Below are positions 30,690-52,707 of a stretch of DNA of 64,000 nt, one piece after another. Location of the stretch: assembly GCA_965249105.1 (NCBI GenBank), contig OZ252219.1:192190-256189 (forward strand), given 5' to 3'. The stretch is from Vicinamibacterales bacterium (lineage in GTDB: Bacteria; Acidobacteriota; Vicinamibacteria; Vicinamibacterales; UBA8438). Numbering within the stretch: position 1 is the first letter of the stretch; every line of letters starts with the position of its first letter. Below the pieces are notes generated by a model. The model saw only the letters and a list, made by a program, of their open reading frames with translations. It made no database searches and was not told where the DNA came from. The translations under genes and the position numbers were made by a program.

Positions 30690-31166
30690 TCAGAGAATCA
30701 CACGCAGCGCGATCTTTCCCACGGTGAGCAAGAGGGCCATGAGAAACGTCATCCCAAGCGAGCGAATCTCGAAGTCATCGAGCAGTTGGTCGGTCAGCCA
30801 CAGGAGGAACGTGTTGATCACGAGTCCGAACAGACCGAAGCTCAACAGCATGGGGATGAACGTGATGAGGGCGATCACCCAGAACAAGAAGTAGCTCAGT
30901 AGGCCGTACACGATCGCAACGGCCACAGCCGTGCCGAACGACTTCAGACGCACGCCGGGCAACAGGGCCGCAATGACGTAGAGCAGCCCCGCGTTCAAGA
31001 GGACGTCGATGATGAGTCGAAGCATCGTGATGGAGGCGGTGAACGAGGCACCGCTCGATGAGGTCCTGGAACCAAGGTCGAAAACCATTCCCTCTCCGCC
31101 ATTTTGATAGCCGCCCTGACCGGCACCCCGGTACGGGCCGAGGGTGGTGCCGGGGGTGAGAGACAT
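30690..31166 (-). CDS. Small 4-TM 'phage holin family IV'-like membrane protein whose ORF opens with a kinase-type N-terminus
   Basis: The core from ATG 31025 is MLRLIIDVLLNAGLLYVIAALLPGV... The ORF is open in frame up to ATG 31166 (MSLTPGTTLGPYRGAGQGG..), whose first 12 codons match the start of Ser/Thr kinase genes. The true start is uncertain. Confidence 0.6.
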   Translation of the reverse strand: MSLTPGTTLGPYRGAGQGGYQNGGEGMVFDLGSRTSSSGASFTASITMLRLIIDVLLNAGLLYVIAALLPGVRLKSFGTAVAVAIVYGLLSYFLFWVIALITFIPMLLSFGLFGLVINTFLLWLTDQLLDDFEIRSLGMTFLMALLLTVGKIALRVIL

Positions 31167-31269
31167 CTTGTTCAGTTGACAGGACCAAGATAGCGATCGC
31201 GCCAGTCCAATGCTAGCGATCGGCCATCGGTTCTTCGGTTGCCCCCAGAAATCGATAGCTTCGCACGGC

Positions 31270-31899
31270 TTACTGAGCGACGAAGCAGTAGAACAGGCCG
31301 TCGCCACCCGTCGCCCGTAGCAGTTCCTGGCTGCAAGCACGGCTATCGTGAGCGGAATTCCAAGCGGCACGGTCATGATGGCCGAGCCTGGCTTTTCCAT
31401 CGCCGCTGCTCGTCCAGTTGTTGCAGGTCATGTCTTCGCCAGCCGGGTACGCCGTGCCGTCCGGCTGGGAGCCAGTCAGCACATCATGCCGGTTCGGAGC
31501 GTATCCACTGCCGGGTATCCTTCTGCCTCTCTCGTCGATCACGGTCATGACGGTAAACCGATGTCCCATGCCGTGAAGCTCGTCGACGTTATTTCCGATC
31601 AGAGTGCCCTGCGCGTTATGCCATGGGCCCGTGCCGATACGGTCCCGCGCATTGACCGCGTTTGGGCCTTGCGTGCTGAGGTAAGCTCGCCAGGTACGGT
31701 CGTCGGCACCCACATCGGTCGCCAGCCTCTGACAGATCGCGTCGGCTCCGGCGAGACCCCCCAGATCGGCTCCTTCGCCCGAGCCATTGCTTGTAATGAA
31801 GAAAGTCATCGGAGCGGATTGTGGACCCTGCGTCAGGGCCAACCCGGAGCCGAGCAGAACGACCGAGATCACGCCAATAACAGTGACTGCCTTTCTCAT
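31270..31899 (-). CDS. Secreted Cys-containing protein, DUF1554/endostatin-like (C-type-lectin fold) pattern
   Basis: ATG 31899 with a GGGAGG Shine-Dalgarno and a signal peptide. ..LGGLAGADAICQRLA..WRAYLST..MTCNNWTSS..LFYCFVAQ at the C-terminus. The family call is tentative. Confidence 0.7.
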   Translation of the reverse strand: MRKAVTVIGVISVVLLGSGLALTQGPQSAPMTFFITSNGSGEGADLGGLAGADAICQRLATDVGADDRTWRAYLSTQGPNAVNARDRIGTGPWHNAQGTLIGNNVDELHGMGHRFTVMTVIDERGRRIPGSGYAPNRHDVLTGSQPDGTAYPAGEDMTCNNWTSSGDGKARLGHHDRAAWNSAHDSRACSQELLRATGGDGLFYCFVAQ

Positions 31900-31970
31900 G
31901 TGGTCCTCCCTTTCCTGATAACCCGAATGTTCAAACCTTTTCACCGAGCGACAGCCGTCCGATCTACTCG

Positions 31971-32111
31971 TCACTTTGGCCCGATTGCGCCGACGTCCCG
32001 GTCGAGCTTGGTGTCTCGGGCTCGATACACCTCACCCATGCCGCCTTCGCCGATCTTGGCGGTGGCAGATAACTCGGCGTTGTTGCGCAAATCGAAACTG
32101 GCGCCGAACAC
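31971..32111 (-). pseudogene. Ser/Thr kinase 5' stub (Gly-rich loop only)
   Basis: ..LSATAKIGEGGMGEVYRARDTKLDRDV then GAIGPK-stop. It has no VAIK Lys, HRD or DFG motif. A 28-nt segment (32037-32064) is identical to 50656-50683. Confidence 0.7.
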
Positions 32112-32157
32112 TCCCAACGCGTGGTCTCGTCACCGACCGATCGCGAACGACTGTGGT

Positions 32158-33846
32158 CTAGTCGGATTCCTCGGGAAGCGCGAATGCATACACCGCGTTC
32201 GAACGGTTCCCCCCGACGGGAACGGCGATGAACTGGCGCCCGTCGACCGCGTAGGTTACGGGGTGACCCTGGGCGGATGCAGGGAGTCGAACCGAGAACA
32301 GGACCTCGCCCTCGGTGACGTCGAGGAAGTACAGATTGCGGTCGGTGTCGGCGCTGACGACGATGCCTCCCGCGGTGGTCAGCGCCCCCAGACGCGGGCG
32401 CGTCGCCATGGCATGCCGCCAGACGACGTCACCGCTCGCAATGTCCATCGCGATCAGGTAGCCGCCGTGGTCGGGACTGTCGGGATGAAGCGTGCTCTCG
32501 CGTTGGAGGAATCCCCGATCGGCGTAGTAGTTGTTGCCGACCACTTGGTCGAGCTCGGTGAACACCCCGGTCACGCAACTCGGGTGAATCGGTATGTACA
32601 GCCGCTCCGTTCCGGGATGGTACGCGCTCGCAGGCCAGTTCTTGACCCCGAGCAGATTAGGGCAGAACGTGATTTCCTCATCGGCGCGCGGGATCATCTC
32701 GGGCCGATAGGTCACCCTGCCGGTTCTCGGATCGAGGTCGAGGACGTCCTGGTATCCGAGGTCGTAGCCGGCGACGTATGAGCCCGTGGTGCGGTCGAGC
32801 TCCCAGAGGATCCCGAGCTTCCCCATCTTGAAGAGCGACCGGCGCCCGTTGTGGTCGATCAGGACGCTCTCGAAAACGTCGTCGAGGTCATGCGTCTCGC
32901 CCGGCGTGAACTGGTAGTACCAGGCGAGCTCTCCGGTATCAGAGTCGATGGCGAGCACGCTGTTCGTATAGAGCGCGTCACCGTCGGTCTTGCGAGACAC
33001 CCGTGCCCACGGCTTGGCCTGCGATGTCGAGTGATAGGTCAGGTTCGTCCCCGGATCGAAGCTTCCCGGAATCCACGAATCGCCGCCGGCACGGAACGTC
33101 AGCGGGAGGTCGCCCCAGGTATCGCCGCCCACAGCGCCAGGCTCGGCGATGGTCGACGTCCGCCACACCTCCTCGCCGGTCTCGGCGTTGTGCGCGGAGA
33201 TGAAACAAACGTCGTTCTTGTAGTTCTGACAGCCGGTCATGCCGGCCACGATCTTCCCGTTCGCCACGATCGGGCCACTCGTATAGCGGTAGCCGAGCGT
33301 CGCATCCGCCACCGTATGGTCCCACGTCACCTCCCCCGTCGCGGCGTCAAGCGCGACGATGTGCGCGTCGGTCGTGCCGAGGTACACGTTCCGTTCGTAG
33401 AGCGCGATCGAGCGCGAGCCTCGCGGAGGACGATCTGACGGCCGCTCCAGACGCTGGTCCAGCGTGTGCGCGTACGACCAGATTTGATCGCCTGTGGTCG
33501 CGTCGAACGCCACGGCACCGTTGCCGGTGTTTGGCACGAACATCACGCCTTCATGCACTAGCGGGGTGGCCTGACTGACGCCCTCGCCGAGCTGCGACGC
33601 CCACACGAGCTGCAGACGGTGGACGTTGTCGGTCGTGATGTCGTCGAGCGGACTGTAGCCCCAGCCATCGAGGGTCCGCCGCCAGTTCAACCAGTCGGCC
33701 GGGTCGGGGTTCTGGAGCATCGCATCGGTGACCGGGGCATATTCGGCAGAGGACTGGGCTCGCGCGATGACGGACCCCAGCATGACGGGCACGACGGCGA
33801 TACCAAGCGCCAGAAGACGTCGTGAAGTTAGAAACCGTTGGAACAT
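32158..33846 (-). CDS. PQQ-dependent dehydrogenase-type 8-bladed beta-propeller protein
   Basis: Start ATG 33846 (MFQRFLTSRRLLALGIAVVPVMLGSVIARAQS). ..DWLNWRRTLDGWGYSPL.., and repeated W-containing propeller blades (..GEVTWDH.., ..GEEVWRT.., ..GELAWYYQ..). Confidence 0.8.
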   Translation of the reverse strand: MFQRFLTSRRLLALGIAVVPVMLGSVIARAQSSAEYAPVTDAMLQNPDPADWLNWRRTLDGWGYSPLDDITTDNVHRLQLVWASQLGEGVSQATPLVHEGVMFVPNTGNGAVAFDATTGDQIWSYAHTLDQRLERPSDRPPRGSRSIALYERNVYLGTTDAHIVALDAATGEVTWDHTVADATLGYRYTSGPIVANGKIVAGMTGCQNYKNDVCFISAHNAETGEEVWRTSTIAEPGAVGGDTWGDLPLTFRAGGDSWIPGSFDPGTNLTYHSTSQAKPWARVSRKTDGDALYTNSVLAIDSDTGELAWYYQFTPGETHDLDDVFESVLIDHNGRRSLFKMGKLGILWELDRTTGSYVAGYDLGYQDVLDLDPRTGRVTYRPEMIPRADEEITFCPNLLGVKNWPASAYHPGTERLYIPIHPSCVTGVFTELDQVVGNNYYADRGFLQRESTLHPDSPDHGGYLIAMDIASGDVVWRHAMATRPRLGALTTAGGIVVSADTDRNLYFLDVTEGEVLFSVRLPASAQGHPVTYAVDGRQFIAVPVGGNRSNAVYAFALPEESD

Positions 33847-34133
33847 GTGAGGAGCATATACGTCCGACGGGAGAGTCGTCACTCGACCACTCGACGATTC
33901 TGGCCCGACCAGTTGCGCGGTAGCGGCCAACGTCGTTTGACCCGCATTAAAGCCCAGCCTGAAATCATCGTCGCTGAAGGTCGCATAGCGATCTGTCGAC
34001 GGAATAGCCGCTCAAATGCGTGCGAACGCGTTCTGACGGGCGTCACTGGTCACGCAGGTGGTAAGGGAACACCGAGTTCGGAAGCTACGTGCCGTTCGTG
34101 CACTTTCTCGTAAGACGGCTCAAGCCTGGCAGG

Positions 34134-36236
34134 TTAGGCGTCGGGCAGCCTGAACGCGACCAACTCGCCCGAGTAGCCGCCGCCGCTGATTGCGACGACC
34201 AGATACTGGTCGCCGTCGAGCGCATAGGTCATCGGCGACCCGGTCTGGGGCGCCGGGATGAAGAGGGCGCCCACTTCGGCGCCGGTCGCCTTATCGTAGG
34301 CGCGGAGCATGGCACCCTGCTGTCCCGTCGGTGTGGTGTGGACCCGGGGGTCGCCGGCAATCAACAGCGTCTGGGTCACCAGCGTGCCGACGCTGCCAGG
34401 CTGGCCCGTCCGCGTGATCTCCAGCCCTCGCAACGCCCGATGGTTCCGGACGTTGTCGGGCGTCTCACCATGCGGGATCCGCCACAGGATCTCGCCGCGT
34501 TCCATGTCGATGGCGCTGATCACACCGTAGGGCGGCTTGAGCAGGGGCAGACCCTGGACGCTGAGCCGGGTGAGCCGACGCTGCTCCGCTGAGATCGGGG
34601 GTCGGGGGGGCGCGTCGAAGCCGGTCCGGCCACCGCCAGCCGACGACCCGGCGCCCCCACTGGTGCGCGGACCGGTGATGGCGTTCCCCTGGATGTAGGC
34701 CATGTCCGACTGCCCCGGATAGGGCGGCGTCAGCCAAAACGCACCGACGGAGCTGTTCGACGACACGTAAAGGATATGGGTGTCCGGGTCGTAGGAGCCC
34801 CCCGGCCAATTCGTGCCGCCACCCGCCGCCGGGGCCGCCAGCGTGCCGAGCGGCCCGTCGAGTTGGCTCACAACTGGCGGCGTGAAAATCGGTCCCAGCT
34901 GGTAGTGGGACACCAGCTCCTCGGCCTCGGCGCGCAGCTCTGGGGTGAAGTCGATCAGATCGTCTAGCGTGACCCCCTGCCGATCGTAGGGCGGCGGCCG
35001 AGTTGGAATTGGCTGTGTCGGCGAATACCACTCCCCAGGCACATCGCCAGCCGGGACCGGTCGCTCCTCGATGGGCCAGATCGGTTCGCCGGTCTCGCGG
35101 TTGAAGACATACAGGAACACCTGCTTGGTCGGCTGCGCGACCGCCTTCACCGTCTCGCCGTCGATGGTGAGGTCGAGCAGGATCGGGGCGCAAGGAATGT
35201 CGTGGTCCCAGATCCCGTGGTGCACCAGCTGGTAGTGCCAGCGACGCTCGCCGGTTCGCACGTCTACCGCCACCAGGCTCTCCGCGAACAGGTTGTTACC
35301 CGGCCGGTTGGCGCCGAAATAGTCACCGGTCGCCGCCTCCACCGGCAGATAGGCCAGGCCCAGCTCCAGATCCACTGAAATCTGCCCCCATACGCCCGTG
35401 TTGCCGGTGTAGACCGCCGAGTCGCTCAGCCACGTGTCGCGACCGAACTGACCGGGACGTGGGATCGTGTGGAAGATCCATAGCCGCTCGCCGGTGCGCG
35501 CGTCGTACCCGCGGACGTAGCCCTTCACGTTGCGCCGACTCCGAGGGTTCCCGCCGGTACGGTGGGCAGCGCCGACGATGATCACGTCGCCAGCCACGAT
35601 CGGCGTGGCGTGCAGCCCGACCTCGCCGGTTGTCAGGTCGATTTGCTGGTCGTTGTCACGCTTCAGGTCGACCATCCCGCCGACGCCGAACTGCGGAACC
35701 GGACGGCCGGTCTGCGCGTCGAGCGCGATCAGCCGGTAGCCCGGCGTCACATAGATTATCCGTGCCTCCTCGCGGCCCGGCGCCCCGCTCCAGTAGGCCA
35801 GCCCGCGCCCCGAGAGCTGTCGCGGTGCCGCCTCGCCACGCGCCCCTTCGGTCAGACTGTAGATCCACTCCAGCTCGCCGGTCGCCGCGTCGAGAGCCAC
35901 CACCGCACGCCGCGACCCGCCCGTCGAGTACAGCGTGCCGTCGACCATGAGCGGCGTGGACTGGAACCGATATTCTGGCACCGGACCGAGGTTGTCGGTC
36001 TTGAACCGCCAGGCGATCTCCAGGTCGGCGAAATTGTCCGCGGTGATCTGGTCGAGCGGCGCATAGCGCGTATGACCCAGGTCGCCTCCGTAGGAGGGCC
36101 ACTCGCCGGCGGCGGCGCCCGATTGGGCCGTGACGGGCGAGACCGCCGTGAGAAGAGCCGCGGCCAGCACGCCGCCGGAAGCGAGCGCATTGTGCCTGGA
36201 CACGAACGCCAGTATACGCGGGAAGATGGTCTGCAT
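34134..36236 (-). CDS. PQQ-dependent dehydrogenase-type beta-propeller protein (glucose/quinate-DH-like soluble form)
   Basis: Start ATG 36236 (MQTIFPRILAFVS.. signal). ..GEWPSYGGDLGHTRYAPLDQIT..LEIAWRFKT.. and ..GERRWHYQLVHHGIWDHD... Confidence 0.8.
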   Translation of the reverse strand: MQTIFPRILAFVSRHNALASGGVLAAALLTAVSPVTAQSGAAAGEWPSYGGDLGHTRYAPLDQITADNFADLEIAWRFKTDNLGPVPEYRFQSTPLMVDGTLYSTGGSRRAVVALDAATGELEWIYSLTEGARGEAAPRQLSGRGLAYWSGAPGREEARIIYVTPGYRLIALDAQTGRPVPQFGVGGMVDLKRDNDQQIDLTTGEVGLHATPIVAGDVIIVGAAHRTGGNPRSRRNVKGYVRGYDARTGERLWIFHTIPRPGQFGRDTWLSDSAVYTGNTGVWGQISVDLELGLAYLPVEAATGDYFGANRPGNNLFAESLVAVDVRTGERRWHYQLVHHGIWDHDIPCAPILLDLTIDGETVKAVAQPTKQVFLYVFNRETGEPIWPIEERPVPAGDVPGEWYSPTQPIPTRPPPYDRQGVTLDDLIDFTPELRAEAEELVSHYQLGPIFTPPVVSQLDGPLGTLAAPAAGGGTNWPGGSYDPDTHILYVSSNSSVGAFWLTPPYPGQSDMAYIQGNAITGPRTSGGAGSSAGGGRTGFDAPPRPPISAEQRRLTRLSVQGLPLLKPPYGVISAIDMERGEILWRIPHGETPDNVRNHRALRGLEITRTGQPGSVGTLVTQTLLIAGDPRVHTTPTGQQGAMLRAYDKATGAEVGALFIPAPQTGSPMTYALDGDQYLVVAISGGGYSGELVAFRLPDA

Positions 36237-36249
36237 CGGTGGTCTCCGG

Positions 36250-36294
36250 GTCCGGATCAGACGCAAACGCCTCGGGCAGAATCTTCAGCGCCAC
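36250..36294 (-). pseudogene. Ser/Thr kinase stub (subdomain II piece)
   Basis: VALKILPEAFASDPD, read from GTG 36294, overlaps the start region of the PQQ gene. Upstream the frame opens only about 12 codons earlier (..KRRTAREAQ). Confidence 0.6.
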
Positions 36295-36481
36295 CTGGGC
36301 TTCTCGGGCCGTGCGGCGTTTGGGACTGTCTTGGCTACCTGACGGGGCCTACGAGGCGGATGTGCGCTTCCGGATTACTGCTGTTGGCCAGTGCAACGTG
36401 TTGCACTCGCCGTCGGCCGAATTTGACGCTCGCTTCAAACCCTCACGGGACAGAGACACACTCGACGCCCGAACCGGAGCG

Positions 36482-37009
36482 TCATTGTCCGGTGAAGCGG
36501 TCGGTAAACAGGACGCGCTCAGCAATCCTCCAGCCTTGATCGGTCTTCTTCCAGGTGTTTCTGTAGATGCCCGAACCGCTAATGAAAGGAACTCTGTCAT
36601 CTGCCGTTTGGTGGGTAATCAACGCCATGTTCTCGGTAACAGCACGGTCGGCCGACAGTTCTAGGAACACCAGTGCTGACATGTGATGCCGGGTTTGACG
36701 ATCAGCCAGCCGACCCTGATGAGACTCCTTCGCATAGGCCAGAATGGCTTGACGACCGACCACTCGCGAGCGGCTCACCAGTTCACCACCACGCCGGCTC
36801 TCCATGACGCTGTCGACCGTGAAGAGATCCGCAAATCCAGCAGAGTCCTTGGAGTCCCACAGATAGGAATACTGAGCGAGCTGTTCCTCAATGGCCAACC
36901 TGTCTTCTACTGAGCCAGTCTGCGCCGCGGCCCTTTCGCTCCCGACAAGGGAGCAAAGCATGACCAGACTTAGCGTGATGCGTTTACTCAGGGTGTTCGT
37001 GAACATCAA
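36482..37009 (-). CDS. SnoaL-like / NTF2-fold protein with signal peptide
   Basis: 175 aa. MMFTNTLSKRITLSLVMLCSLVGSERAAAQ.., ..LAIEEQLAQYSYLWDSKD..FADLFT.., typical of the SnoaL_4/NTF2-like family. Confidence 0.7.
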   Translation of the reverse strand: MMFTNTLSKRITLSLVMLCSLVGSERAAAQTGSVEDRLAIEEQLAQYSYLWDSKDSAGFADLFTVDSVMESRRGGELVSRSRVVGRQAILAYAKESHQGRLADRQTRHHMSALVFLELSADRAVTENMALITHQTADDRVPFISGSGIYRNTWKKTDQGWRIAERVLFTDRFTGQ

Positions 37010-37070
37010 GCACTCCTCGGTCGACCTCTGAACCAGTTCGGGTGGCCGGTTTCAACCACGTGCCAGTTGA

Positions 37071-37152
37071 CCTGGCCAGCCGGTCAGGATCATCTGTGAC
37101 GGCTTCGGGCAGGATCTTGAACGCCACCTGGTGCGCCGACGGTCAGGGCCAT
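37071..37152 (-). pseudogene. Ser/Thr kinase 5' stub with internal deletion/frameshift
   Basis: ATG 37152 gives MALTVG (the same opening as the stub at 49821). One frame over follows ..HQVAFKILPEAVTDDPDRLAR, and then unrelated sequence runs into the SnoaL gene start. Confidence 0.6.
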
Positions 37153-37579
37153 AGGACAAGCACTTCAAATCGAAGCCAGCGCGCTAGCTTGCGGGCGAAT
37201 CTCCGAATCTCTCGTCTCAGAACGGACGTTACGTTCGGCATGTCGTGCTTCTCTAGGGCCGTACAGGTACGACGCAGATCAAGGCTGATTATACGGCCCA
37301 GATAGCGCACATTCTGGCCCATGAGCAGACCCAGGCCGAAGATATAGATTCTGCCAAGAGTGCCCTAAATGTGAATCCCGGGGACCACGGCGGGCAGAAT
37401 AGTCCCCCCTTGACGGGACCAAGGTTGGAAGGAGAACAACCGGCGACGAAGAAATCGGCGCTACGGAAAGGCTGTGGGTGTATAAAGGGTCCTGGTCTGG
37501 GCCGCCAAAACGGAGTCCCGGTTCATTATTCGCCAACAGTTACAGCGGTTCACTGGAGCTGCTGCCAAGGGAGGGTGTG

Positions 37580-39790: not shown

Positions 39791-39910
39791 TCGAACGATG
39801 AAAATTCAGGGGGTGGGGACGAGGCGCTGGAGTTCGTCCAGCAGTGCCTAGCGAACGCGCAGTGATACCTCGGCGCGGGCGGGTTTCGGGGGTATCAAGC
39901 AGCCGGCTTG

Positions 39911-42935: not shown

Positions 42936-43293
42936 ATGCACGGTTTGCGCGCAGAACTCCGGGGGATCCAAGCAGTCGCATTCGATCTAGACGGCGTGCT
43001 CTACCAAGCGAATGCGCCGATACCCGGCGCTGCCCGCACGGGGAGCGGTGGTGTGGCTTCGCCGCCAAGGTGCCAGCGCGTCTTTCTTTGTGCCAAACCC
43101 TGCACTGGGGGACTTCGAGGGCGTCCTCCAAGACGACGAGCGACCAGACGCCGTTGTCATCGGCGACCGCGGGGGGCGGCCAAGCCCACAGGCACGTGCC
43201 ACGACGGGGGAACGTAAGGCGGTTGGTTTCCACCCGACGACTCCAGCCACAGGAGAGGCAAAACGCAGCAGCCGCGAACGGCAGCCACGCTAG
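42936..43293 (+). pseudogene. HAD-IIA (NagD-like) hydrolase remnant, frameshifted and internally deleted
   Basis: Frame 1: ..IQAVAFDLDGVLYQANAPIPGAA (HAD motif I DxDG). Frame 2: ..AVVWLRRQGASASFFVPNP..FEGVLQDDERPDAVVIGD... Most of the cap and core is missing. Confidence 0.55.
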
Positions 43294-43429
43294 AGAAGCG
43301 CGGGCGAACGACCGGGTTCTCGAGGCTTCCTCTCCCGACGCCACGACGACTCCGACGCTCGAGGCCGGGTTCGAAGGACCATGTCGAGGTCGGACACACG
43401 CCCGGGGGAACCGACCACTCTGTCGACGC

Positions 43430-44437: not shown

Positions 44438-45825
44438 GGCGCCTCCTGCCGTGCAATCCGGTAGAGGGAGTGCTGGGTTCGTAGAATCAGGCTGCCACGC
44501 ACGACGGCTGGTGTGGCCAGCGCCATCTCGTCCAGGATGTTCGTGTGGAGAATCCTGAAGTCCGGACCGGCTTCGACAACAAACGTCTCACCGTCCTCAC
44601 TGAGTAGAAAGATCTTCCCGTTGTAGGCCCAGGGCGACGCGGTGAAGGTGGTGCCAGGTCGAATGCGCTGGCGGCTGTACACCTCCTGGCCCGTCAAAGC
44701 GTTGTGACTCAACAGAAGACCGCGGTCAAGCAGCGTGTAGTACTGACCGCGATAGACCAGCGGCGATGTGTTGTACGTGCCAAGCAGCGGATACGACCAG
44801 GCGACGTACTCGGACGACCCCCGGTTGCCGGGAAACAGAGTATCCCAGTTGCGATCGTCTGGCGACCAAACGGAGATATCGCCGGACGCACCAGGGTGGA
44901 TGGCATAGACGGGACGCAGCGAACCGCCTGGGTATCCTGAGCTGATATAGACCAGACCGTGGGCGACGACTGGCGATGGAATCGTGAGTGCCGACATGCC
45001 GCTCAGCTCCCACAGTAGATTTCCGTCGAGGTCGTACGAGCGCACCTTCCCTGTGCCGGCCGTCACGATCTCGGTGCGCACGCGGTTCTCCCAGATGACG
45101 GGTGTGGACCAGTTTCCGCGCTCGCTCCGTCCTACCTCCCAGATCTTCTCTCCCGTTCTCTTGTCGAAGGCGGCCATGAACGACCGTGTCGTATTGTCGT
45201 TCACCACGATCACCCGGTCTTCGTGAAGCACGGGCGACGCCCCGGTGCCGAGCTCGACCTGCGTGTTGAACGCACCGATCTCCTGCGTCCAGACGATCTG
45301 CCCGTCCATGTCCAGTGCCGCAATCAGACCGATACTTCCGAAGTACACGTATACCCGTTCGCCATCGGTGACGACCGTCTCCGAGGCATAGCTATTCTTG
45401 ATGTGTCGCAGCATCGGTGGGTACTCGCTGCGGAGCTCCCGCTCCCAGCGGAGCTCACCCGTTCTGAAGTCCACGTCTTGCACGACGAAGCGGTTGACGG
45501 CCGCTGCGGGAATGTGGTCGTGCTCGTCGTAGAGCCCCGTCACCGGCATCGCCTCATCCCCGGCGCTGACCGCAGAGGTGATGAAGATGTGGTTGTCCCA
45601 TACGACCGGCGAGCTCCACCCCAACCCCGGCACGGAGGTCTTCCAGACGACGTTCTCGGTTTCGCTCCAGGTATCCGGCAGCCCTGGATCGTCCGCCACC
45701 ACGCCCGCATTGGGACCGCGAAACTTCGGCCATTGATCGGTCTGCGCCGCCCCGGCCAGCGAGAAGACGAGCAGGCTGACGCCAACGATGAGTACGCGAT
45801 AGGTGGTCATCCTCATGGCCCTCAC
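44434..45825 (-). CDS. PQQ-like / BamB-like beta-propeller repeat protein
   Basis: 463 aa. Signal peptide, ..DQWPKFRGPNAGVV.., and repeated ..G..(V/I)W.. blades. 4-nt overlap with the downstream gene. Confidence 0.75.
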   Translation of the reverse strand: MRAMRMTTYRVLIVGVSLLVFSLAGAAQTDQWPKFRGPNAGVVADDPGLPDTWSETENVVWKTSVPGLGWSSPVVWDNHIFITSAVSAGDEAMPVTGLYDEHDHIPAAAVNRFVVQDVDFRTGELRWERELRSEYPPMLRHIKNSYASETVVTDGERVYVYFGSIGLIAALDMDGQIVWTQEIGAFNTQVELGTGASPVLHEDRVIVVNDNTTRSFMAAFDKRTGEKIWEVGRSERGNWSTPVIWENRVRTEIVTAGTGKVRSYDLDGNLLWELSGMSALTIPSPVVAHGLVYISSGYPGGSLRPVYAIHPGASGDISVWSPDDRNWDTLFPGNRGSSEYVAWSYPLLGTYNTSPLVYRGQYYTLLDRGLLLSHNALTGQEVYSRQRIRPGTTFTASPWAYNGKIFLLSEDGETFVVEAGPDFRILHTNILDEMALATPAVVRGSLILRTQHSLYRIARQEAP

Positions 45826-45907
45826 ACTATGCCAGTAACTCGAGCAGCGTAAACCGCCACCCCGGCGACCATGTATCCCACAAGTACCGACAGATCTTCC
45901 GCGCGAT

Positions 45908-46078
45908 TCACCTCGAGGCCCTGCCGACCTCGCTCACCACCATCATGCGATCTCCGGGGAGACTACGGTAAAAGAGCTCGCTGCCATCAGGGGACCACAG
46001 CGGCTCGATTCCACCGCCCGTCGAGATCGTCACTTTCTCGCCGAGGTCCGGATACGGGCGGCTGCGGGCCTCCACGAG
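45908..46078 (-). pseudogene. 3' remnant of a TolB/WD40-like beta-propeller gene (the usual C-terminal domain of the local kinase family)
   Basis: LVEARSRPYPDLGEKVTISTGGGIEPLWSPDGSELFYRSLPGDRMMVVSEVGRASR-stop. It begins two codons after the IS630 end. Confidence 0.55.
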
Positions 46079-46081
46079 GCA

Positions 46082-47164
46082 CTAGTGTGGTGCGTTTAAC
46101 GCTTCTTTACACCGGTCGACCTTCGCGAGGATGGTGTCGGCATCCTTGGTCCAGATAAACGGCTTCGCATGCTGATTGTAATGAGTCAAGTAGTCGTGGA
46201 TCGCTCGCTCGAGCGCCGGCACGCTGGTGAAGGTACCCCGGCGGAGCCGCGTGCGAGTGATCTCCGCGAACCAGCGTTCCACCAGATTCAGCCAGGAGCT
46301 GCTGGTGGGCACGAAGTGAAAGTGCACGCGGGGATGGCGCGTGAGCCAGCGCCGCACCTGGGGACTCTTGTGGGCACTCAGGTTGTCCAAAATCAGGTGC
46401 AGCGGCTGATCGGGAGGCGTCGCGCGTTCCAGCCGCCGGAGGAACTGCACGAATTCTTGACTCCGGTGACGGCGGCGGCATTCGCCGATCACGACGCCAT
46501 CGAGCACGCGCAGTGCGGCATACAGCGTGGTCGTCCCGTAGCGGACGTAGTCATGGGTCTGGCGTTCGGGGACGCCGGGCCGCAGTGGCAACACCGGGCG
46601 CGTCCGGTCCAGCGCTTGGATCCCACTCTTCTCATCGACGCAAAACACCACCGCTTTGGCGGGTGGATTCAGATACAGCCCCACCACGTCGCGCAGCTTC
46701 TCGACGAAGTGGGGGTCGGTCGACAGCTTGAACTGCCCCACGCGGTGGGGCTGGAGGCCGTGTTGTCGCCAGATCTTACGAATCGTGCCGTCGCTCACGC
46801 CCTGCGCTTCCGCCAGGGCGCGACTACTCCAATGGGTGCCGGCCGGCGGGCGCGTCGTCAGGGTCGCGTCAACGATCGCCTGCACCTTCGTCAGGGTCAA
46901 GCGTGGGCGTCGGCCCGGACGCGTGGCGTCGCGGAGCACGCCCGGAACCCCCTCGGCCACAAACCGGCGCGCCCACAACCGCACCGTCATCCGACTGACG
47001 TGCAGCGTCCGGGCCACGACCATCGGCGAGGCCTGTTGCGCCAGCATCAACACGATCCGCGCCCGCCGCGCCACCTTCTGCGTCGTCGTCCCGCGCTCAG
47101 CCACCTGGGCCAACTGGGCTTGCTCGGTCGGCGATGCGTAGACACAGTACCGTTGAATGAACAT
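46082..47164 (-). CDS. IS630-family (Tc1/mariner-like) DDE transposase
   Basis: 360 aa. HTH N-terminus, then ..VFCVDEKSGIQALDR.., ..LHLILDNLSAHKS.., ..SSWLNLVERWFAEITR... Confidence 0.9.
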   Translation of the reverse strand: MFIQRYCVYASPTEQAQLAQVAERGTTTQKVARRARIVLMLAQQASPMVVARTLHVSRMTVRLWARRFVAEGVPGVLRDATRPGRRPRLTLTKVQAIVDATLTTRPPAGTHWSSRALAEAQGVSDGTIRKIWRQHGLQPHRVGQFKLSTDPHFVEKLRDVVGLYLNPPAKAVVFCVDEKSGIQALDRTRPVLPLRPGVPERQTHDYVRYGTTTLYAALRVLDGVVIGECRRRHRSQEFVQFLRRLERATPPDQPLHLILDNLSAHKSPQVRRWLTRHPRVHFHFVPTSSSWLNLVERWFAEITRTRLRRGTFTSVPALERAIHDYLTHYNQHAKPFIWTKDADTILAKVDRCKEALNAPH

Positions 47165-47235
47165 GCGCTACCGTACCAAACGGGCAGCGCAAAGTACAGC
47201 GTTTCGTGTACAGCTATTTCGTACTCAGGACACTA
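46083..47235 (-). mobile_element. IS630-family insertion sequence inserted at a CTAG (TA target)
   Basis: CTAG is present at both junctions (46082-46085 and 47233-47236). Both ends start TAGTGT... It encloses an intact 360-aa transposase. Confidence 0.8.
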
Positions 47236-49821
47236 GTACCCTTCGAGGACCGGGAATGCTTCGTCGGTCGGCAGAGGCTGCACGCCTAACGCGTTGAGCG
47301 TCATCGAGACCATTCGGTACCGCGCGACGGTCATTGCGATGCTCATCAGCTGGTGTGTGTCGTAGTGCTCGGCGAGGTCGTTCCACGTTGAATCGGAGAT
47401 CGCAGCGTCGCGGTACATCTCGTTCGCCGCTTCGATCAGTGAGAGCTCCTTCGGGCTCCAGCCCGGCGCATCCCCGCCTTGCGCAATCCAAACCGGATCC
47501 AGGCCACGATCACGCGCGCGCCCGACGCTCCCGACATGCTTGGCCCACTCGTAGACCGACTGCGCGTTCCAACCGGTGCGGAGAATCAGCAACTCCCGGT
47601 CGTGCGGTGTGAGTCGCGACCGTTCCGGGCTGAGGACGTATCCCTCATTGGCTTGCCACTGATCGGCGAGCGCCGCATGTTGGCGAAGCGTGCGCGAGAC
47701 CCGCAGCCCGTCGCCGTCGACCGGCTCGACCCGCGGCGTCGTGAGCGGTGGCTCGCGATCGGGTACCTCGAGCCGATAGGCGACCGACGTCGCAGGCAGC
47801 GGTAAGGAGGCAGCATCGTCGTCCGGCTGCACGCCAAGCGAGTTGAAGAGAATCGATTGCGCGGTGACATCAGCGACGGTCACGACCGCATCAACCAGGT
47901 TGTATCGGTCGTACTGCTCAGCCAGGCGCTGCCAGGTCCGGTCGGTCACCGACGAGTTGCGATACAGCTCGTCCGCCATGCCGATGAGCACGGCCTCGAA
48001 GTCACCCCATCCTTCCGCAGGTCCCTCCGCGACGCGCCGCACATCATCCTGGTCCAGACCCGCGTCGGCGGCATGACTCGCGTGGCTGGCCCACAGGCTA
48101 GCGCTTTGGGTCAACCAGGCTGTGCGTAGGATGAGCAGTGCCCGGTGGCGCGGTGACAGCGTCGACTCGTTGCTCACATAGTTGAGCAGCGGGAAGACCC
48201 GGTCTGCCATGCCAGGAGCGCGGATCAGGGTGTGCAGAGCGTTGTCCGGATTTCCACGGGCGCCGTACTGATCGACGACTTCCCGCTGTTCCGTGCTCCA
48301 TTCCGATTCCGGCAGTGGTGTTACCCGCGGCGGCGTCCAGCGCGGCATCGTAAGGATGTTGCCGGGCGGGTCGATGATCGCGAGCGCTGGCTCGATCCTG
48401 AAGAGGATCGAGTCGTCCTCCTCCGTCAACACGTACAGAAACCCGTCCGGGCCCTGGGTGACGTGCCGGATCCGCTGCTTGAGATCGGTGAGCAACCACT
48501 CCCGTCGGACTTCCTGCCCAAGGCGATTGAAGACCACCCGCTCGAGGTGTCCCGTCCGCTGCATTCGCCCGACCATCATCGAGCCCACGAACAGGCTTCC
48601 TTGCCACTTCGGGAAGTGCTTGCCGGTGTAGAAGGTCAGACCTGAGGGTCCGATCGACGGCCACCACATCAGTTCGGGGGCAGTGAACTCCGGCCGCCAC
48701 GGTGTGTCGGAGATCGGGGTGCCGCCGTATTCGCGGCTGTACGATGTGATCGGCCACCCGTAGTTGCCCCCCGGTTCGATAATGTTGGCTTCGTCTCCCC
48801 CCTGCACACCGTGCTCGGTCGCCCAGAGCTGGCCCGTGCCAGGGTGATGGGCGAGGCCGATCTGGTTGCGGTGGCCCATTGAGTAGATCTCCGGAAGGTA
48901 GCCCTCGCGGCCAGCGAACGGGTTGTCGGCGGCGGCGGTGCCGTCGTCCTTCAGGCGGAGCAGCTTGCCGAACTGCGTGCCGGGGTCCTGCGCATGCCCT
49001 CGGCGAACCCGGCGGCACCCGTCAGGAGGCGCTGCGACGCCATAGCCCCTTGGGGCACCGCCCACCGTCATGAACAGGGTGCCGTCTGGGGCCCAGAGGA
49101 GACGGGAGGCCGCAAAGCCCCTTTCCCAGCCATCAGCGACGAAGATGTCGCGCACTTCCGTCAACGCGGCGCCCTCGAGCCGACCGCGCGCGAGCGCGAC
49201 CGTCGAGCCTTCCTCGCCTTCGCATGTCTTCGGTTTCGAGTAGGTCAAGTAGACGAGGCTGTCATCCTCGGGGTGGACGACCACGTCCATCAAGCCCGCC
49301 ATCCGTGTCCGGAGGAACAGCTCGGGGACACCCGGGATGTCTTGGTCTAGGAGCTGGCCGTCACGGACGATCCGCAACGTGCCGCGATCGCGCTCGGTGA
49401 CCAGGATGTCGCCGTTCTTCCGAAACGCCATGCCCCACGGATGTGACAGGCCAACGGCGATCGGCACGACCCGAATCCGATACTCGGCGGTGTAGAGCAC
49501 GACCGGTTCGTGAGGTGGCGCGACCGCCGGGACAATGCTCGGTCCTTGCGCCAACGAGAGGCCGGCGCCTGCGAGCAGGATCGCAAACGCGAGCACGATG
49601 GTCCGAGCACCGTCGCCCAGCCTTCGGCAAAACAGCTTGTTGTCGTCCGGTGCCCACACAAGCATGCCCCCCCCATCTCGTGACACTCGCTCGCGATCCG
49701 CGTTGATGTTGGGCCGGTTCAGCTTCGTGTCGGTGGCCTGATAGACCTGCCCCATGCCGCCCTCTCCGATGAGGGCGGTCACGTCGTAGTGGGCGAGTCG
49801 TGAACCGACTGTCAGGGCCAT
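47233..49821 (-). CDS. Chimeric ORF: kinase stub, TM helix, PQQ-dependent sugar dehydrogenase (SGDH-type propeller), two AhpD/CMD-like domains
   Basis: 862 aa. MALTVGSRLAHYDVTALIGEGGMGQVYQATDTKLNRP, then ..TIVLAFAILLAGAGLSLAQG, ..GLSHPWGMAFRKNGDILVTERDRGTLRIV.., and ..LSPRHRALLILRTAWL.. and ..LTPHDRELLILRTGWNAQSVYEWAKHVG... The functional start may be internal (..GGMLVWAP..). Confidence 0.75.
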   Translation of the reverse strand: MALTVGSRLAHYDVTALIGEGGMGQVYQATDTKLNRPNINADRERVSRDGGGMLVWAPDDNKLFCRRLGDGARTIVLAFAILLAGAGLSLAQGPSIVPAVAPPHEPVVLYTAEYRIRVVPIAVGLSHPWGMAFRKNGDILVTERDRGTLRIVRDGQLLDQDIPGVPELFLRTRMAGLMDVVVHPEDDSLVYLTYSKPKTCEGEEGSTVALARGRLEGAALTEVRDIFVADGWERGFAASRLLWAPDGTLFMTVGGAPRGYGVAAPPDGCRRVRRGHAQDPGTQFGKLLRLKDDGTAAADNPFAGREGYLPEIYSMGHRNQIGLAHHPGTGQLWATEHGVQGGDEANIIEPGGNYGWPITSYSREYGGTPISDTPWRPEFTAPELMWWPSIGPSGLTFYTGKHFPKWQGSLFVGSMMVGRMQRTGHLERVVFNRLGQEVRREWLLTDLKQRIRHVTQGPDGFLYVLTEEDDSILFRIEPALAIIDPPGNILTMPRWTPPRVTPLPESEWSTEQREVVDQYGARGNPDNALHTLIRAPGMADRVFPLLNYVSNESTLSPRHRALLILRTAWLTQSASLWASHASHAADAGLDQDDVRRVAEGPAEGWGDFEAVLIGMADELYRNSSVTDRTWQRLAEQYDRYNLVDAVVTVADVTAQSILFNSLGVQPDDDAASLPLPATSVAYRLEVPDREPPLTTPRVEPVDGDGLRVSRTLRQHAALADQWQANEGYVLSPERSRLTPHDRELLILRTGWNAQSVYEWAKHVGSVGRARDRGLDPVWIAQGGDAPGWSPKELSLIEAANEMYRDAAISDSTWNDLAEHYDTHQLMSIAMTVARYRMVSMTLNALGVQPLPTDEAFPVLEGY

Positions 49822-50081
49822 AGGTGTCAGGCTGAGACCGGGACCATTGTAGTCACCCGGCCCACGCTGGCCTATCCGGTTGCACAGAAATACGGCTCAG
49901 ACGTACGTGTTGTCGAGCTGCGCCCGAACCCCTGGCACGCGACGAGGAGAGTCTAGTCCGCTTCTCAGTTGCAGATGAATGCCCTCCGAAGCCCCGACGG
50001 GCGGGGAACGCAACCCTGTGTGTCCCTCATCGCTCCCGGTTGGGCGAGAGCGGTGGATTCCGTAGCGCGAGAGGCGCTCTC

Positions 50082-50614
50082 ATGCGATTCGTGGTTCTCG
50101 TCGCAGCTGTCGTCGGGCTTGGCGTCTCGGAGGCGTCGGCACAAAACCCTTTTGCGGGAGTGACGAACGAGCCCCGTCCGTCCGAGTTCGTCCACTGGGA
50201 CGCGGAGTCGTTCGCCGGGTTCACGAAAGAGCTTGAAGGTAAGTTGCGTGAGGGACCGGGAACTTCGGCACACAGTTCGCCGTCCTGAACGCTCTCCCAA
50301 GGGCCGATCATCGGCGGCACGACGTGCAGATCATCTATCGGTCTGGCTACACGCAACCCGAGATCCACGAAACCAAGTGGGACCTCTACGTCGTACTGGA
50401 CGGGTCGGGCACCGTCCTGCTTGGCGGCGAGCGCGTGAACTGGGTGGAGGGGCTGCCACAGGATGAGCAGCGGCCGGAGCTGAGTGGCGCGCAAGAGTTC
50501 CACGTTACCAAGGGCGACATGCTCCACGTGCCCGCTCGCTCATGGCACTAAGTCAAAGTGGCGGATGGGGACTCGATCACCTACGCGCTGATCAACGTGT
50601 TCGAAGACGACTAG
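50082..50614 (+). pseudogene. Cupin-domain protein with a frameshift and an in-frame TAA
   Basis: ATG 50082 (MRFVVLVAAVVGLGVSEASAQ..) in frame 0 until about 50255. It continues in frame 2 (..GTGNFGTQFAVLNALPRADHRRHDVQIIYRSGYTQPEIHETKWDLYVVLDGSG..HVPARSWH), then TAA 50549-50551, then in frame VKVADGDSITYALINVFEDD-TAG. Confidence 0.65.
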
Positions 50615-50724
50615 CCAAGTATCAAACCCACTCGTGGCGTCCGATTCACCTCCCACATGCCGCCTTCGCCGATCTTGGCGGTGACGGTATACGGCCCGAG
50701 GGTGATGCCAGATGTGAGACTCAT
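50611..50724 (-). pseudogene. Ser/Thr kinase 5' stub
   Basis: MSLTSGITLGPYTVTAKIGEGGMWEVNRTPRVGLILG-stop. Its ATG overlaps the stop of the upstream small gene (ATGA). Confidence 0.7.
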
Positions 50725-50915
50725 GAGTTACGAGGGCCCGACGGCGGCAAACCGTCTCTCGGCTTCCCAGCCGACCGGCCCGCGCCCAGAGCAGCGCCCA
50801 CCGCAACTCCGACGGCGAGCCACAAGCCGAGGTTATCGAGCGCCACGCCGAGTGCTGTTCCAATGGCAATGCCGACAGCCAGCCATGTACCGACTGTAGT
50901 GGTGTTCGACTTCAT
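50721..50915 (-). CDS. Small glycine-zipper membrane protein
   Basis: 64 aa from ATG 50915: MKSNTTTVGTWLAVGIAIGTALGVALDNLGLWLAVGVAVGAALGAG... Confidence 0.5.
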   Translation of the reverse strand: MKSNTTTVGTWLAVGIAIGTALGVALDNLGLWLAVGVAVGAALGAGRSAGKPRDGLPPSGPRNS

Positions 50916-50984
50916 GGTTGTCCACACCGACCCGTTCGGCACCCACATCGAGCTGACCGAGGGGCTCGACGGCTGGTGACTCTG

Positions 50985-52442
50985 TCAGTGCGCCTCGATG
51001 AACGCGGCGATCTGTTTCATCGCGGCATCACCTTTGTCGCCCATCTTCGACATGATGCTGCCGTGCGTGCGGTCCGCGATCTCGACTGTGTCCACTTGCG
51101 ACCCGGCGTTCGAGAGCTCCGTCTTCAGCCGCTCGTTCTGCGCGCGGCGCCAGTCTTCGTCGCCGTCGGCGTAGATCAGCCGCATCGGTGGCTTGCCGGC
51201 GCCGATATACGGAGTCACCGACGCCTTCAACCAGGCCGTTTCATCGGTGCCCCAGACCGTCTTGGGACGATCCCTGGCCGTCTCCTCGACGTAGAGGAAC
51301 GGACTGACCGGTAGGGCCCCGCGAATCGCCGAAAGCGCCAGCCCGTGCGCCTTCAAGTAGGACGGGTCGAGTGACATCAGTGCGGCGAGGTAGGCGCCCG
51401 CCGAGTGCCCCCCGACGAAGACCCGCTCGGGGTCGCCGCCATACTCGGCGATGTGCCGCTTGGTCCAAGCGAAGGCTGCCGCCGCGTCCTCCATGTGCGC
51501 CGGATGCATGACCTCCGGCGACAGGCGGTAGTTGGCGGTAACGACGCCGATGCCCTCGCCCACGAGGGTCGCAGCCAGCACTTCGCCGGTGCGCTTGTTA
51601 CCGCTCTGCAACGCACCGCCGTGGAAGAAGACGATAACCGGGGCGTTCGTGGCGTCCGCTGGCATCAAGACGTCCAGCTTGTCCTTGTCGTGCGGGTAGT
51701 CGACACCGTCGAGGTAGTCGATATCCCGGTGGGCGGTCACCCCGGTCTGGCCGGCCGCAGTCGCCGCCGCGAGCGTGGGCGTCTTTTCGGCGATAACTCG
51801 GGCGAGATCGGCCATGAACGCCTGTGCGACACCGGAGTCAATCTTGACGACCACTGGCCAGAACTTCCTCGTCGAATCCTCCAAAACGACCGTCAATCGG
51901 TTATCGACTTCAGCGATTTCCCCTTGTTGGTCAAGACTCATGAATCGGGGCATGACCCTCCATACCGCCTCGCCATACAGTCCTTTTTGGCCGTTCTGGT
52001 CGAGAGAATAAGCCGCGGTGCCGATCAATGAATCCATGCCATCTGTTTCGTTCGCGGGTGGCTTCGCGTTGATCACGCGAGCGAGGTCGGCTTGAAGCGT
52101 CCGAGCGTCCGACAGAGGCATCTTGACGATGACGGGCCAAAAGCCATCCCGGGTCGCTGGATCCTGCAAGACAACGATCAGGCGGTCGTCACCACCTTGG
52201 GCACTCCCTCCGTTGTAGTTGGGATGAACCGCCCAATGGGTTTCCTCCGGCAGAACGACGAGCCCCGACGTAGATAGATCGTAGGGCCACACGGTAATGA
52301 GGGCCTCCATGTTCGTTTCTTCCACGCCCTGGGCCGCAACCTCCCCCAGTGTCCAGGTGGGCATGGTGAGGACCGTAAGAAGAACGAGCGCGAACATTCC
52401 GAAAGGGGGTACCCGAGCATTGTCATTGCCCTGCAAGATCAT
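50985..52442 (-). CDS. Alpha/beta hydrolase (esterase/lipase-type, HGG and GxSxG) with a duplicated N-terminal domain
   Basis: 485 aa. ..VIVFFHGGALQSGNK.., ..VFVGGHSAGAYLA.. (nucleophile elbow). The N-terminal ~85-aa module is present twice. Confidence 0.8.
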   Translation of the reverse strand: MILQGNDNARVPPFGMFALVLLTVLTMPTWTLGEVAAQGVEETNMEALITVWPYDLSTSGLVVLPEETHWAVHPNYNGGSAQGGDDRLIVVLQDPATRDGFWPVIVKMPLSDARTLQADLARVINAKPPANETDGMDSLIGTAAYSLDQNGQKGLYGEAVWRVMPRFMSLDQQGEIAEVDNRLTVVLEDSTRKFWPVVVKIDSGVAQAFMADLARVIAEKTPTLAAATAAGQTGVTAHRDIDYLDGVDYPHDKDKLDVLMPADATNAPVIVFFHGGALQSGNKRTGEVLAATLVGEGIGVVTANYRLSPEVMHPAHMEDAAAAFAWTKRHIAEYGGDPERVFVGGHSAGAYLAALMSLDPSYLKAHGLALSAIRGALPVSPFLYVEETARDRPKTVWGTDETAWLKASVTPYIGAGKPPMRLIYADGDEDWRRAQNERLKTELSNAGSQVDTVEIADRTHGSIMSKMGDKGDAAMKQIAAFIEAH

Positions 52443-52533
52443 GATCAGCCTCCTCTACAAAGGATCGACAACGGTTCCGTTTTCGGTCTGTACGCATTCC
52501 CTTGACGCGGCGGTATGTCGGGTGAAACCTTGT

Positions 52534-52707
52534 TTAGAATCGCTGCGTCAGGCCGGGATCTTGGGCGATATGCTCGGGAAGCACCTTGATGGCGACGATG
52601 CGGTCGAGGCGGGTGTCGCGGGCCTTGTAGACCTCGCCCATGCCCCCGGCGCCGAGCGGGGCGTCGATCTCGTAGGGTCCGAGTGTTGCGCCAGCTTTCA
52701 GAGGCAT
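52534..52707 (-). pseudogene. Ser/Thr kinase 5' stub (subdomains I-II only)
   Basis: [60 protein letters not shown]. It is the longest stub and still lacks everything from helix C onward. Confidence 0.75.

Follow-up and report, generated by a model that had tools for sequence, protein, structure and literature searches.

The DNA considered here, a stretch of 64,000 nucleotides that we call the window, comes from a bacterium of the Vicinamibacterales (Acidobacteriota) and corresponds to positions 192,190 to 256,189 of contig OZ252219.1 (assembly GCA_965249105.1). It carries an island of approximately 24 kb, set between a tRNA-Lys gene and a partial copy of that gene, in which the 5' ends of Hanks-type Ser/Thr kinase genes recur as short fragments, or stubs, ahead of genes of other kinds. 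The original prediction, made from the sequence alone, placed eight stubs on one strand, and six-frame searches and direct translation agree at every one of these positions (Table 1). They represent the first 12-57 codons of kinase genes. A weak ninth candidate, ERARDTKLDQD, comes just past the LamG stop codon. All nine fragments are on the minus strand (P = 0.004) and all fall at 30.5-54.3 kb, within the tRNA-Lys-bounded segment as had been proposed (P = 1e-4).

The stubs were scored with a profile hidden Markov model (HMM) that covers the N-terminal 62 residues and was built on 57 kinases of other loci; it was searched against the six-frame translation of the window. This check, suggested with the original prediction, gave significant matches for seven of the eight stubs, with E values of 2.5e-27 to 1.1e-3. 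The eighth, 31166, is too short for significance alone and is confirmed by orthology to real kinase starts in related strains. Across 20 shuffled windows the top score ranged over 3-14 bits, never above 13.6 bits, and by score alone stubs 36294 and 42198 (15.6-15.9 bits) are barely over this noise. The 57-residue stub 52707 also matches Pfam Pkinase (E = 1.8e-4, model positions 1-35). The glycine-rich loop of subdomain I, GxGxxG, is found in stubs 52707, 50724, 49821, 42198 and 32111, and the VAxK lysine of subdomain II occurs as VAIK in 52707, VAFK in 37152b, the second part of a composite stub, and VALK in 36294. As claimed earlier, the stubs cover these two subdomains only. Full-length kinase queries gave no match beyond residue 57 in the window, and hence none to the catalytic core (HRDxKxxN, DFG, APE), except for one PD40 repeat; this is, as reported, the sole 3' remnant. 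The window stubs are gene fragments, not kinases.

Table 1. Kinase fragments, gene blocks and island features of the window. Residue (aa) numbers follow the full-length kinase; E values are for the N-terminal profile.
Feature	Position	Strand	Content and basis
Stub 52707	52707-52537, stop 52534-52536	minus	aa 1-57, G-loop and VAIK; E=2.5e-27
Stub 50724	50724-50638	minus	aa 1-29 or so; E=1.6e-9
Stub 49821	49821-49711	minus	aa 1-37, in frame with GSDH-CMD open reading frame (ORF); E=7.9e-17 (49821-49714, aa 1-36)
Stub 42198	42198-42151	minus	aa 8-23; E=1.1e-3
Ninth candidate, ERARDTKLDQD	41245-41207	minus	aa 25-37; tblastn and translation; E=1.1, not significant alone
Stub 37152, composite	37152-37132 and 37130-37071	minus	MALTVGA, then aa 37-56 (37152b) out of frame, then SnoaL_4; E=3.2e-6 for 37152b
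Stub 36294	36318-36250	minus	aa 36-52 or so; translation; E=8.5e-4 (36300-36250)
Stub 32111	32078-31992	minus	aa 14-38; E=1.8e-13 (32066-31992); DUF1554 gene about 90 nt downstream
Stub 31166	31166-31131	minus	aa 1-12, in frame with holin-family ORF; E=0.61
Sole kinase 3' remnant, PD40 repeat	46054-45932	minus	aa 782-822 of 895; tblastn and Pfam PD40
186-aa ORF	52736-53296	minus	
Esterase	50985-52442	minus	Pfam; starts 91 nt downstream of stub 52707 stop
75-aa membrane ORF	50721-50948	minus	
GSDH-CMD	47233-49665	minus	Pfam; start set by homologue lengths
PQQ_2	44434-45825	minus	Pfam
LVIVD	43430-44437	minus	Pfam
LamG	41239-42153	minus	Pfam
BON	39911-40684	minus	Pfam
SnoaL_4	36482-37009	minus	Pfam
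PQQ dehydrogenases	34134-36236 and 32158-33930	minus	Pfam
DUF1554	31270-31899	minus	Pfam; start set by homologue lengths
Holin-family	30690 to ~31020	minus	Pfam
tRNA-Lys(ctt), island anchor	54331-54406	minus	ARAGORN and Rfam
Partial tRNA-Lys copy (3' half, 63 nt), distal island border	30476-30538		92% identity, direct-repeat search
Second partial tRNA-Lys copy	24715-24777		83% identity, direct-repeat search
IS6-family element beside tRNA-Lys	53502-54289	plus	Pfam DDE_Tnp_IS240; inverted repeats seen
IS6-family relic, right inverted repeat 41162-41183	40903-41183	plus	72% identity to IS6 copy; bounds LamG block
IS630-family transposase (element ~46087-47220)	46082-47164	minus	Pfam DDE_3 and HTH; element absent from L086

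Breakpoints differ among the stubs, as first noted, the lengths being 12, 23, 29, 37, 38, 52, 56 and 57 codons; that of 50724 had been read at codon 28 and is closer to codon 34. The longest exact repeat between window stubs is the reported 28-nt identity (32037-32064 and 50656-50683), and the opening common to stubs 49821 and 37152 is 14 nt long. A start codon is absent from four of the nine fragments. The ATG of stub 50724 is 4 nt past the stop of the 75-aa membrane ORF, a -10-like box, TACAAT, sits upstream of stub 49821, and the end of stub 36294 is 13 nt from the ATG of the 700-aa PQQ dehydrogenase. At stub 42198 the LamG lipoprotein starts, as predicted, with the Met of the GGM motif. 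LamG may sit within one single stub, between GEGGM and later residues, with the fragment at 41245-41207 as the other half.

Pfam upholds the names given earlier to the genes that follow the stubs, namely the holin-family, DUF1554, two PQQ dehydrogenase, SnoaL_4, LamG, GSDH-CMD and esterase genes, and adds BON, LVIVD and PQQ_2. We refer to these gene blocks as cargo. The esterase, SnoaL, DUF1554 and PQQ genes keep their own Shine-Dalgarno sequences and starts, and their own signal peptides. The best 120 homologues of GSDH-CMD are all stand-alone proteins of 783-827 aa, and those of DUF1554 are all stand-alone proteins of 179-233 aa (mostly 205-215). The nearest GSDH-CMD homologue (97% identity) begins at a Met 52 residues into the fused ORF. 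Because these are stand-alone families, the comparison indicates that the cargo genes of the two tested families are not former kinase domains, and the in-frame stub-cargo fusions are most readily explained as chance products of GC-rich DNA with few stop codons. A run of eight G (49661-49668) stands right before the GSDH start codon and variable-length G-runs are seen in the glycine-loop codons of other stubs (for example at ~10060 of the related locus L021); these are candidate slippage sites.

The cargo bears on one of the explanations first offered, that single genes for kinase-transmembrane-periplasmic-domain proteins lost their catalytic cores by internal deletion. Such deletions do occur in relatives, in products that retain residues 1-217 and 620-830 (L008), 1-270 and 536-915 (L010) or 1-186 and 839-883 (L021), and the cargo is mostly exported, as a kinase ectodomain would be. 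The idea fails to explain the cargo itself. A kinase domain is found in none of the best 120 homologues of GSDH-CMD or the best 120 of DUF1554, whose lengths are those of stand-alone proteins; the cargo has starts, Shine-Dalgarno sequences and cleavable or lipoprotein signal peptides of its own; and in two related strains (L088 and L089) DUF1554 lies between separate kinases. We regard internal deletion as a very improbable source of the array.

What were the stubs derived from? Relatives were collected by searching a 57-aa composite of the window stubs against one genome per species, which gave 456. The nearest, at 89-96% identity, are metagenome-assembled genomes (MAGs) of Vicinamibacterales, in Mb-scale contigs or chromosome-labelled records. 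Soil and freshwater Acidobacteriota have the same N-terminus at the head of 850-950-aa kinases, often two to four in a row on one strand. The family consists of Hanks-type Ser/Thr kinases of ~900 aa with a kinase domain, a transmembrane segment and then a beta-propeller or TPR domain. The MAGs nearest to the window hold full-length but frameshifted copies (L018, L022), 3' remnants, middle pieces and many 5' stubs, and a duplicated 2.7-kb segment (L022, L023) ends within a kinase, with insertion sequence (IS) copies at its flanks. In this Vicinamibacterales lineage the family is being eroded by frameshifts, IS insertions, internal deletions and truncations, and the stubs are genuine relics of a decaying, tandemly organised kinase family.

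The ancestral gene can be followed at one stub. In L088 and L089 the order is kinase, stub (residues 1-39), DUF1554, kinase, and the DUF1554 protein is 97-98% identical to that of the window. The downstream kinase is a 441-aa called product with a Pkinase domain in L088; in L089 an IS66 interrupts it, and it extends to residue 898. The DNA of stub 31166 is 96% identical to codons 1-13 of these real kinases, and on this orthology 31166 is the truncated start of a kinase still present in relatives. The junction of stub 32111 with DUF1554 is shared with both strains, where the stub is complete (residues 1-39) and preceded by another kinase. Between codon 14 in the upstream stub and codon 13 in the downstream kinase the window and L089 are 96% identical, and they diverge beyond both points. 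The original prediction held that intact kinases in relatives at all these positions would reduce the pattern to local decay; a real kinase was found at the position of stub 31166. Ordinary decay of a kinase array thus accounts for part of the pattern. A large serine recombinase gene (L089 17114-18820) and a tyrosine-integrase fragment (L088 13550-14008), for which no link to the stubs is established, are located no more than 8 kb from the kinase/DUF1554 cluster.

Stub arrays are a recurrent phenomenon, independent of this assembly. When the stub profile was searched against 5.8 billion proteins, each of the best 120 matches was an ORF of 57-100 aa, and many of these ORFs belonged to contigs of 1-7 Mb. 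In a second organism one locus, present in four assemblies (L001-L004), has five same-strand stubs 0.7-2 kb apart, most of them closely before a called gene on that strand. Similar arrays are found in L009, L010, L013, L021 and L055, and, among Vicinamibacterales MAGs, in the chromosome-labelled records OZ244656.1 and OY759970.1 and in the large contigs CBDBHJ01. Several of the proteins matched (P0001-P0004, P0016 and P0021) are short ORFs in which two stubs of different subtypes are fused head to tail, the second stub's leader being translated in frame in P0001; they look like deletions that collapsed neighbouring stubs. Exact look-up of three window proteins in the contig index gave no match, probably owing to start-codon choice or strain differences.

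A second assembly of the array allows its junctions to be compared between strains. L086 (ERZ26167216 ctg477714), a 56-kb contig assembled from a different sample at 5x coverage, shares 96-99% identity with the window; its record name and coverage tag suggest a long-read assembly. It lacks IS630 and has other IS insertions. The same gene blocks are present in a changed order, with PQQ_2-LVIVD-LamG before cupin-GSDH instead of after it, and with the 186-aa gene and stub 52707 after GSDH instead of at the head of the array. The cupin ORF, on the plus strand at 50003-50551, is a 75-aa fragment in the window and a 177-aa called gene in L086, and the region is 97% identical in another relative, L012. 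Five junctions recur in L086: stub 49821 with GSDH, stub 42198 through LamG to the 41245 fragment, the 3' side of stub 50724, 37152b with SnoaL, and 36294 with PQQ. The ERARDTKLDQD fragment is also there. Upstream of stub 42198, L086 retains 103 nt more, ATG included, so that this stub of the window lost its own start codon through a 103-nt deletion, a point that the original reading of the LamG start did not contain. The PD40 remnant, cut in the window by IS630 on one flank and by a rearrangement on the other, is longer in L086 (residues 782-839).

These recurrences tell on the suggestion, also made originally, that the region is an assembly chimera mis-stitched at repeated kinase 5' sequences. 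A mis-join at a repeat would indeed yield hybrid stubs at block boundaries, and the coverage of L086 is low. Set against this are the five junctions repeated in an independent assembly, the similar arrays in four assemblies of another strain, in Mb-scale contigs and in chromosome-labelled records, and the 28-nt limit on exact matches among window stubs. Most junctions, moreover, join a stub to non-kinase DNA, which repeat collapse could not produce. A chimera is largely excluded.

The comparison is most informative where orthology breaks inside a stub. For stub 52707, identity to L086 is 99% through the upstream gene to about codon 12, falls to ~65% over the remainder of the stub and then ceases; the kinase subtypes differ after about codon 12, and past the stub the window has the esterase whereas L086 has a 206-aa membrane protein. 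Stub 50724 gives the mirror pattern, with unrelated upstream DNA, paralogue-level similarity at nt 16-45 and 99% identity from about nt 46 on. Orthology of 37152b begins at codon 42, inside the stub, and at stub 36294 the L086 match starts at 36274, with an IS upstream in L086 instead. Stub 49821 was compared with L012, which is orthologous to window positions 49713-50401 and belongs to a MAG named after Langseth Ridge. The flank is identical at 387 of 400 positions and stub nt 16-111 at only 81 of 96 (84%; Fisher P = 3e-5), no nearer than paralogues of other genomes, and the homology stops exactly at the breakpoint originally assigned to this stub. The breaks at 52707, 50724 and 49821 preserve the kinase reading register. 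Such in-register hybrid stubs are the signature of homologous crossing-over between paralogous stubs, which argues that homologous recombination between stubs reshuffles the gene blocks.

Two further ideas were considered at these junctions and rejected. Cargo capture via an RNA intermediate does not suit stub 49821, which is resident because its upstream, non-transcribed DNA is orthologous to L012. A sharp breakpoint hotspot was suggested by several boundaries near codons 12-14 (LGPY), yet stub ends range from codon 12 to beyond codon 100 across loci.

How might the array have arisen? We favour, with a probability of roughly 0.6, decay of the kinase family combined with repeat-mediated shuffling of gene blocks at the stubs, helped by IS elements. 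The first ~170 nt of the kinase genes persist as many dispersed copies, oriented as the array they came from, and would act as short homologous repeats. In-register recombination, probably of the RecA type, could then join the DNA upstream of one stub to that downstream of another and so swap, insert or permute the intervening blocks between strains. New stub-to-gene junctions would be made by illegitimate joins, probably of microhomology or end-joining type, and IS6, IS630 and other IS elements would contribute further rearrangements. The one-strand layout would be inherited from tandem kinase arrays and maintained by recombination between direct repeats, which keeps orientation. The 5' ends may outlast other parts by being the most alike in DNA and, in some copies, by bearing a promoter for the next gene.

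Several observations weigh against this account. Random decay of eight or nine genes of 2.7 kb should leave core and 3' pieces as well as 5' ones, yet the window has nine of the latter, a single 3' piece and nothing from the core. The imbalance is also seen at loci not selected for a stub, with ten 5' stubs against two other fragments in L086 and four against one or two in L089. Some bias to keep or copy 5' ends must therefore exist, and its cause is here only inferred. Every cargo gene starts 0-110 nt past a stub breakpoint, which plain decay does not predict. Nor does plain decay predict the apparent enrichment, about twofold, of exported proteins among the cargo (18 of 27, compared with a background of 83 of 254, as judged by a crude hydrophobicity rule and from ORF-based calls in which some genes are missed). 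L010 (3499-4345) and L013 (9085-9863) share a junction at which the terminal TGA of a 30-codon stub and the ATG of a Zn-ribbon protein gene overlap as ATGA; it persists at 74% nucleotide identity, with the stub and gene start still ~88-90% identical, which points to constraint or gene conversion. For the hybrid stubs at 52707 and 50724, both in register, the basis is one strain, at the 5x coverage given above. Homologous recombination leaves the origin of each stub-to-gene junction unexplained, the differing breakpoints requiring separate illegitimate events. Part of the reshuffling may, finally, be IS6-mediated and not stub-mediated, with one IS6-family element on either side of the segment 41184-53501, both in the same orientation, an arrangement like that of an IS26-type compound structure.

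Detection bias was examined as the source of the 5'-only pattern. It is ruled out because the kinase domain of paralogues from related MAG loci is as conserved as the first 60 residues, and conserved core remnants would have been detected.

The preference for 5' ends, the position of the cargo, its export, the long-lived junction and certain promoter boxes fit a selected expression unit made of a stub and the next gene, or stubs refreshed by gene conversion. The boxes in question are TAnAAT sequences: among 28 starts of one stub subtype in close relatives, 12 have such a box at a distance of 20-55 nt upstream, some as TGGACA-N17-TAnAAT. In the window, 36000-54400 was scanned for sigma-70 promoters under strict settings, and none was found at any of the six fragments, out of nine, that this range includes; this null result, from a promoter and terminator scan that is a weak test, the four fragments without a start codon and the 103-nt deletion from the start region of 42198 speak against such a unit. 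For the same reasons the landing-pad idea of the original prediction stands in part. Orthology does break inside stubs, in register at three of them, but the stacking of incoming genes behind a ready-made promoter is not borne out.

A bolder version of the landing pad is a dedicated cassette system that works without an integrase. The kinase 5' end, with promoter, leader and first 12-60 codons, would be a portable attachment and expression module; circles of a stub plus a gene, excised by stub-stub recombination, would re-enter any kinase 5' end in the same genome or, after transfer, another. The cargo would gain a promoter and the target kinase stay intact, and arrays would grow by repeated insertion and be kept by selection. 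Such a system would account for the single orientation of all units, the cargo starts within ~110 nt of stub ends, the TAnAAT boxes and the exported-protein enrichment. It would also suit the circularly permuted block order of the window relative to L086, and the same stub-to-gene unit, with its TGA/ATG overlap, in different surroundings in L010 and L013. On each of its two sides the esterase block ends near codon 13 of a stub, the outcome expected of a single crossover by a circle with one hybrid stub. Yet beyond the missing start codons, the recent loss of the upstream region and start of 42198 and the empty promoter scan, the end of the array has no intact kinase, all breakpoints differ so that there is no common cassette boundary, every other form of kinase decay occurs in the same genomes, and no circle or empty site was observed. 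We consider this system unlikely. We are equally doubtful of the wider proposition that the 5' end of a hugely expanded kinase family has been co-opted as an enzyme-free docking and expression site, with units circulating in RecA-dependent fashion within genomes and between symbionts. If true, it would be integron-like without an integrase, and would account for one-sided arrays, short cargo leaders and the exported-enzyme bias.

Site-specific integration is another alternative. Phage 21 and e14 carry a replacement for the 3' end of icd, and site-specific elements might likewise have targeted the kinase 5' end with a replacement 5' end, leaving the displaced original as a stub. The one-sided, co-oriented array would be explained in this way, and the island does adjoin a tRNA gene, partial copies of which are present. 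No tyrosine or serine recombinase, IntI included, was found among the Pfam-scanned ORFs of the island and its flanks, where only DDE transposases were detected, and a fixed crossover site would give one stub length instead of 12-57 codons. This is the least probable of the explanations considered.

Family decay with shuffling at stubs has a described counterpart, where the original prediction knew of no described mechanism for a one-sided array, although kinase stub arrays themselves were not described in the literature searched. The nearest process on record is sequential displacement in Rhs, contact-dependent inhibition (CDI) and type VI secretion (T6SS) loci, where a conserved gene fragment anchors recombination and one-sided orphans accumulate (PMC5361080). 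New junctions there are ascribed to homology-facilitated illegitimate recombination, and arrays are exchanged between strains (PMC5361080). Both systems have a one-sided array in which each unit holds a conserved gene fragment serving as recombination homology, and in both modules are exchanged within that fragment, here as the in-register hybrid stubs relative to L086 and L012. In the Rhs/CDI/T6SS arrays a full-length master gene is followed by orphans, the repeated piece directly precedes a variable 3' toxin domain that belongs to the same gene, and toxin-immunity pairs are the cargo; here the repeated piece is the promoter-proximal 5' end, followed by unrelated whole genes, with no full-length master kinase in the window.

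Other systems resemble the array in part. Integron cassette arrays also have single-gene units in one orientation, very short cargo 5' untranslated regions and an order and content that differ between close strains. An integron was nevertheless rejected, as no IntI was present among the scanned island ORFs and a general repeat search, with no attC covariance model run, found no attC-like repeats, that is, no conserved inverted-repeat family between genes; the boundaries are also not fixed, and recombination here appears homologous and in register. In the minimal mobile elements of Neisseria a variable region is replaced by homologous recombination in conserved flanks. There, as here, the same slot holds different genes in different strains through exchange via flanking homology, but the Neisseria flanks are single-copy intact genes and the stubs are multi-copy relics of 40-170 nt, between which non-allelic exchange is possible. 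Host-restricted bacteria accumulate pseudogenes with IS expansion, and the window shares with them large-scale inactivation of a family, dense IS elements and deletions or rearrangements at repeats; it differs in that one end of one family is preferentially kept, just upstream of intact genes. With tRNA-linked islands it has in common tRNA-Lys and a direct repeat of the tRNA 3' half at the flanks, with a further partial copy beyond, whereas no integrase is left and the internal stub pattern is not theirs.

Should shuffling at stubs be correct, relics of a decaying multi-copy family would not be inert but would form seams at which accessory genes are reassorted between strains. The genes reassorted would be those for exported enzymes and the like (PQQ and sugar dehydrogenases, esterases, lectin-like proteins) in uncultured, probably sponge-associated Acidobacteriota, and the process would offer a checkable route to shuffle a symbiont accessory genome without dedicated recombinases. 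The stronger version, a promoter-bearing portable homology module, would if true bear on the origin and expression of promoterless gene cassettes. The lifestyle is judged from record names only, Langseth Ridge being an Arctic sponge ground (PMC8826442). Two cautions follow for users of these genomes. The many 57-100-aa ORFs with a kinase N-terminus, some labelled serine/threonine protein kinase, are stubs, and in assembly and binning the stub repeats mark true structural variation between strains.

The island borders have features of their own. Pfam identified no integrase beside tRNA-Lys, where an IS6 transposase stands instead; this element (53502-54289) matches, at 98% identity, a copy from the Vicinamibacterales chromosome OY759970.1. 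The second partial tRNA-Lys copy adjoins an IS30-like transposase (24919-26313, HTH_38 and rve), and the segment at 24.8-30.5 kb may be a second, tandem island. Next to tRNA-Lys, at 54432-54472, is an 83% identical copy of a tRNA-Arg(ccg) 3' half (that of 56035-56075), which may be the scar of another integration event. Just beyond the island a LigD-type gene (56280-58442, minus strand) encodes an ATP-dependent ligase and a primase-polymerase domain; an end-joining enzyme of this type could make illegitimate stub-to-gene joins. Elsewhere in the window an inverted repeat of 38 nt (11111-11148 and 11237-11274) has arms that are 87% complementary and separated by 88 nt.

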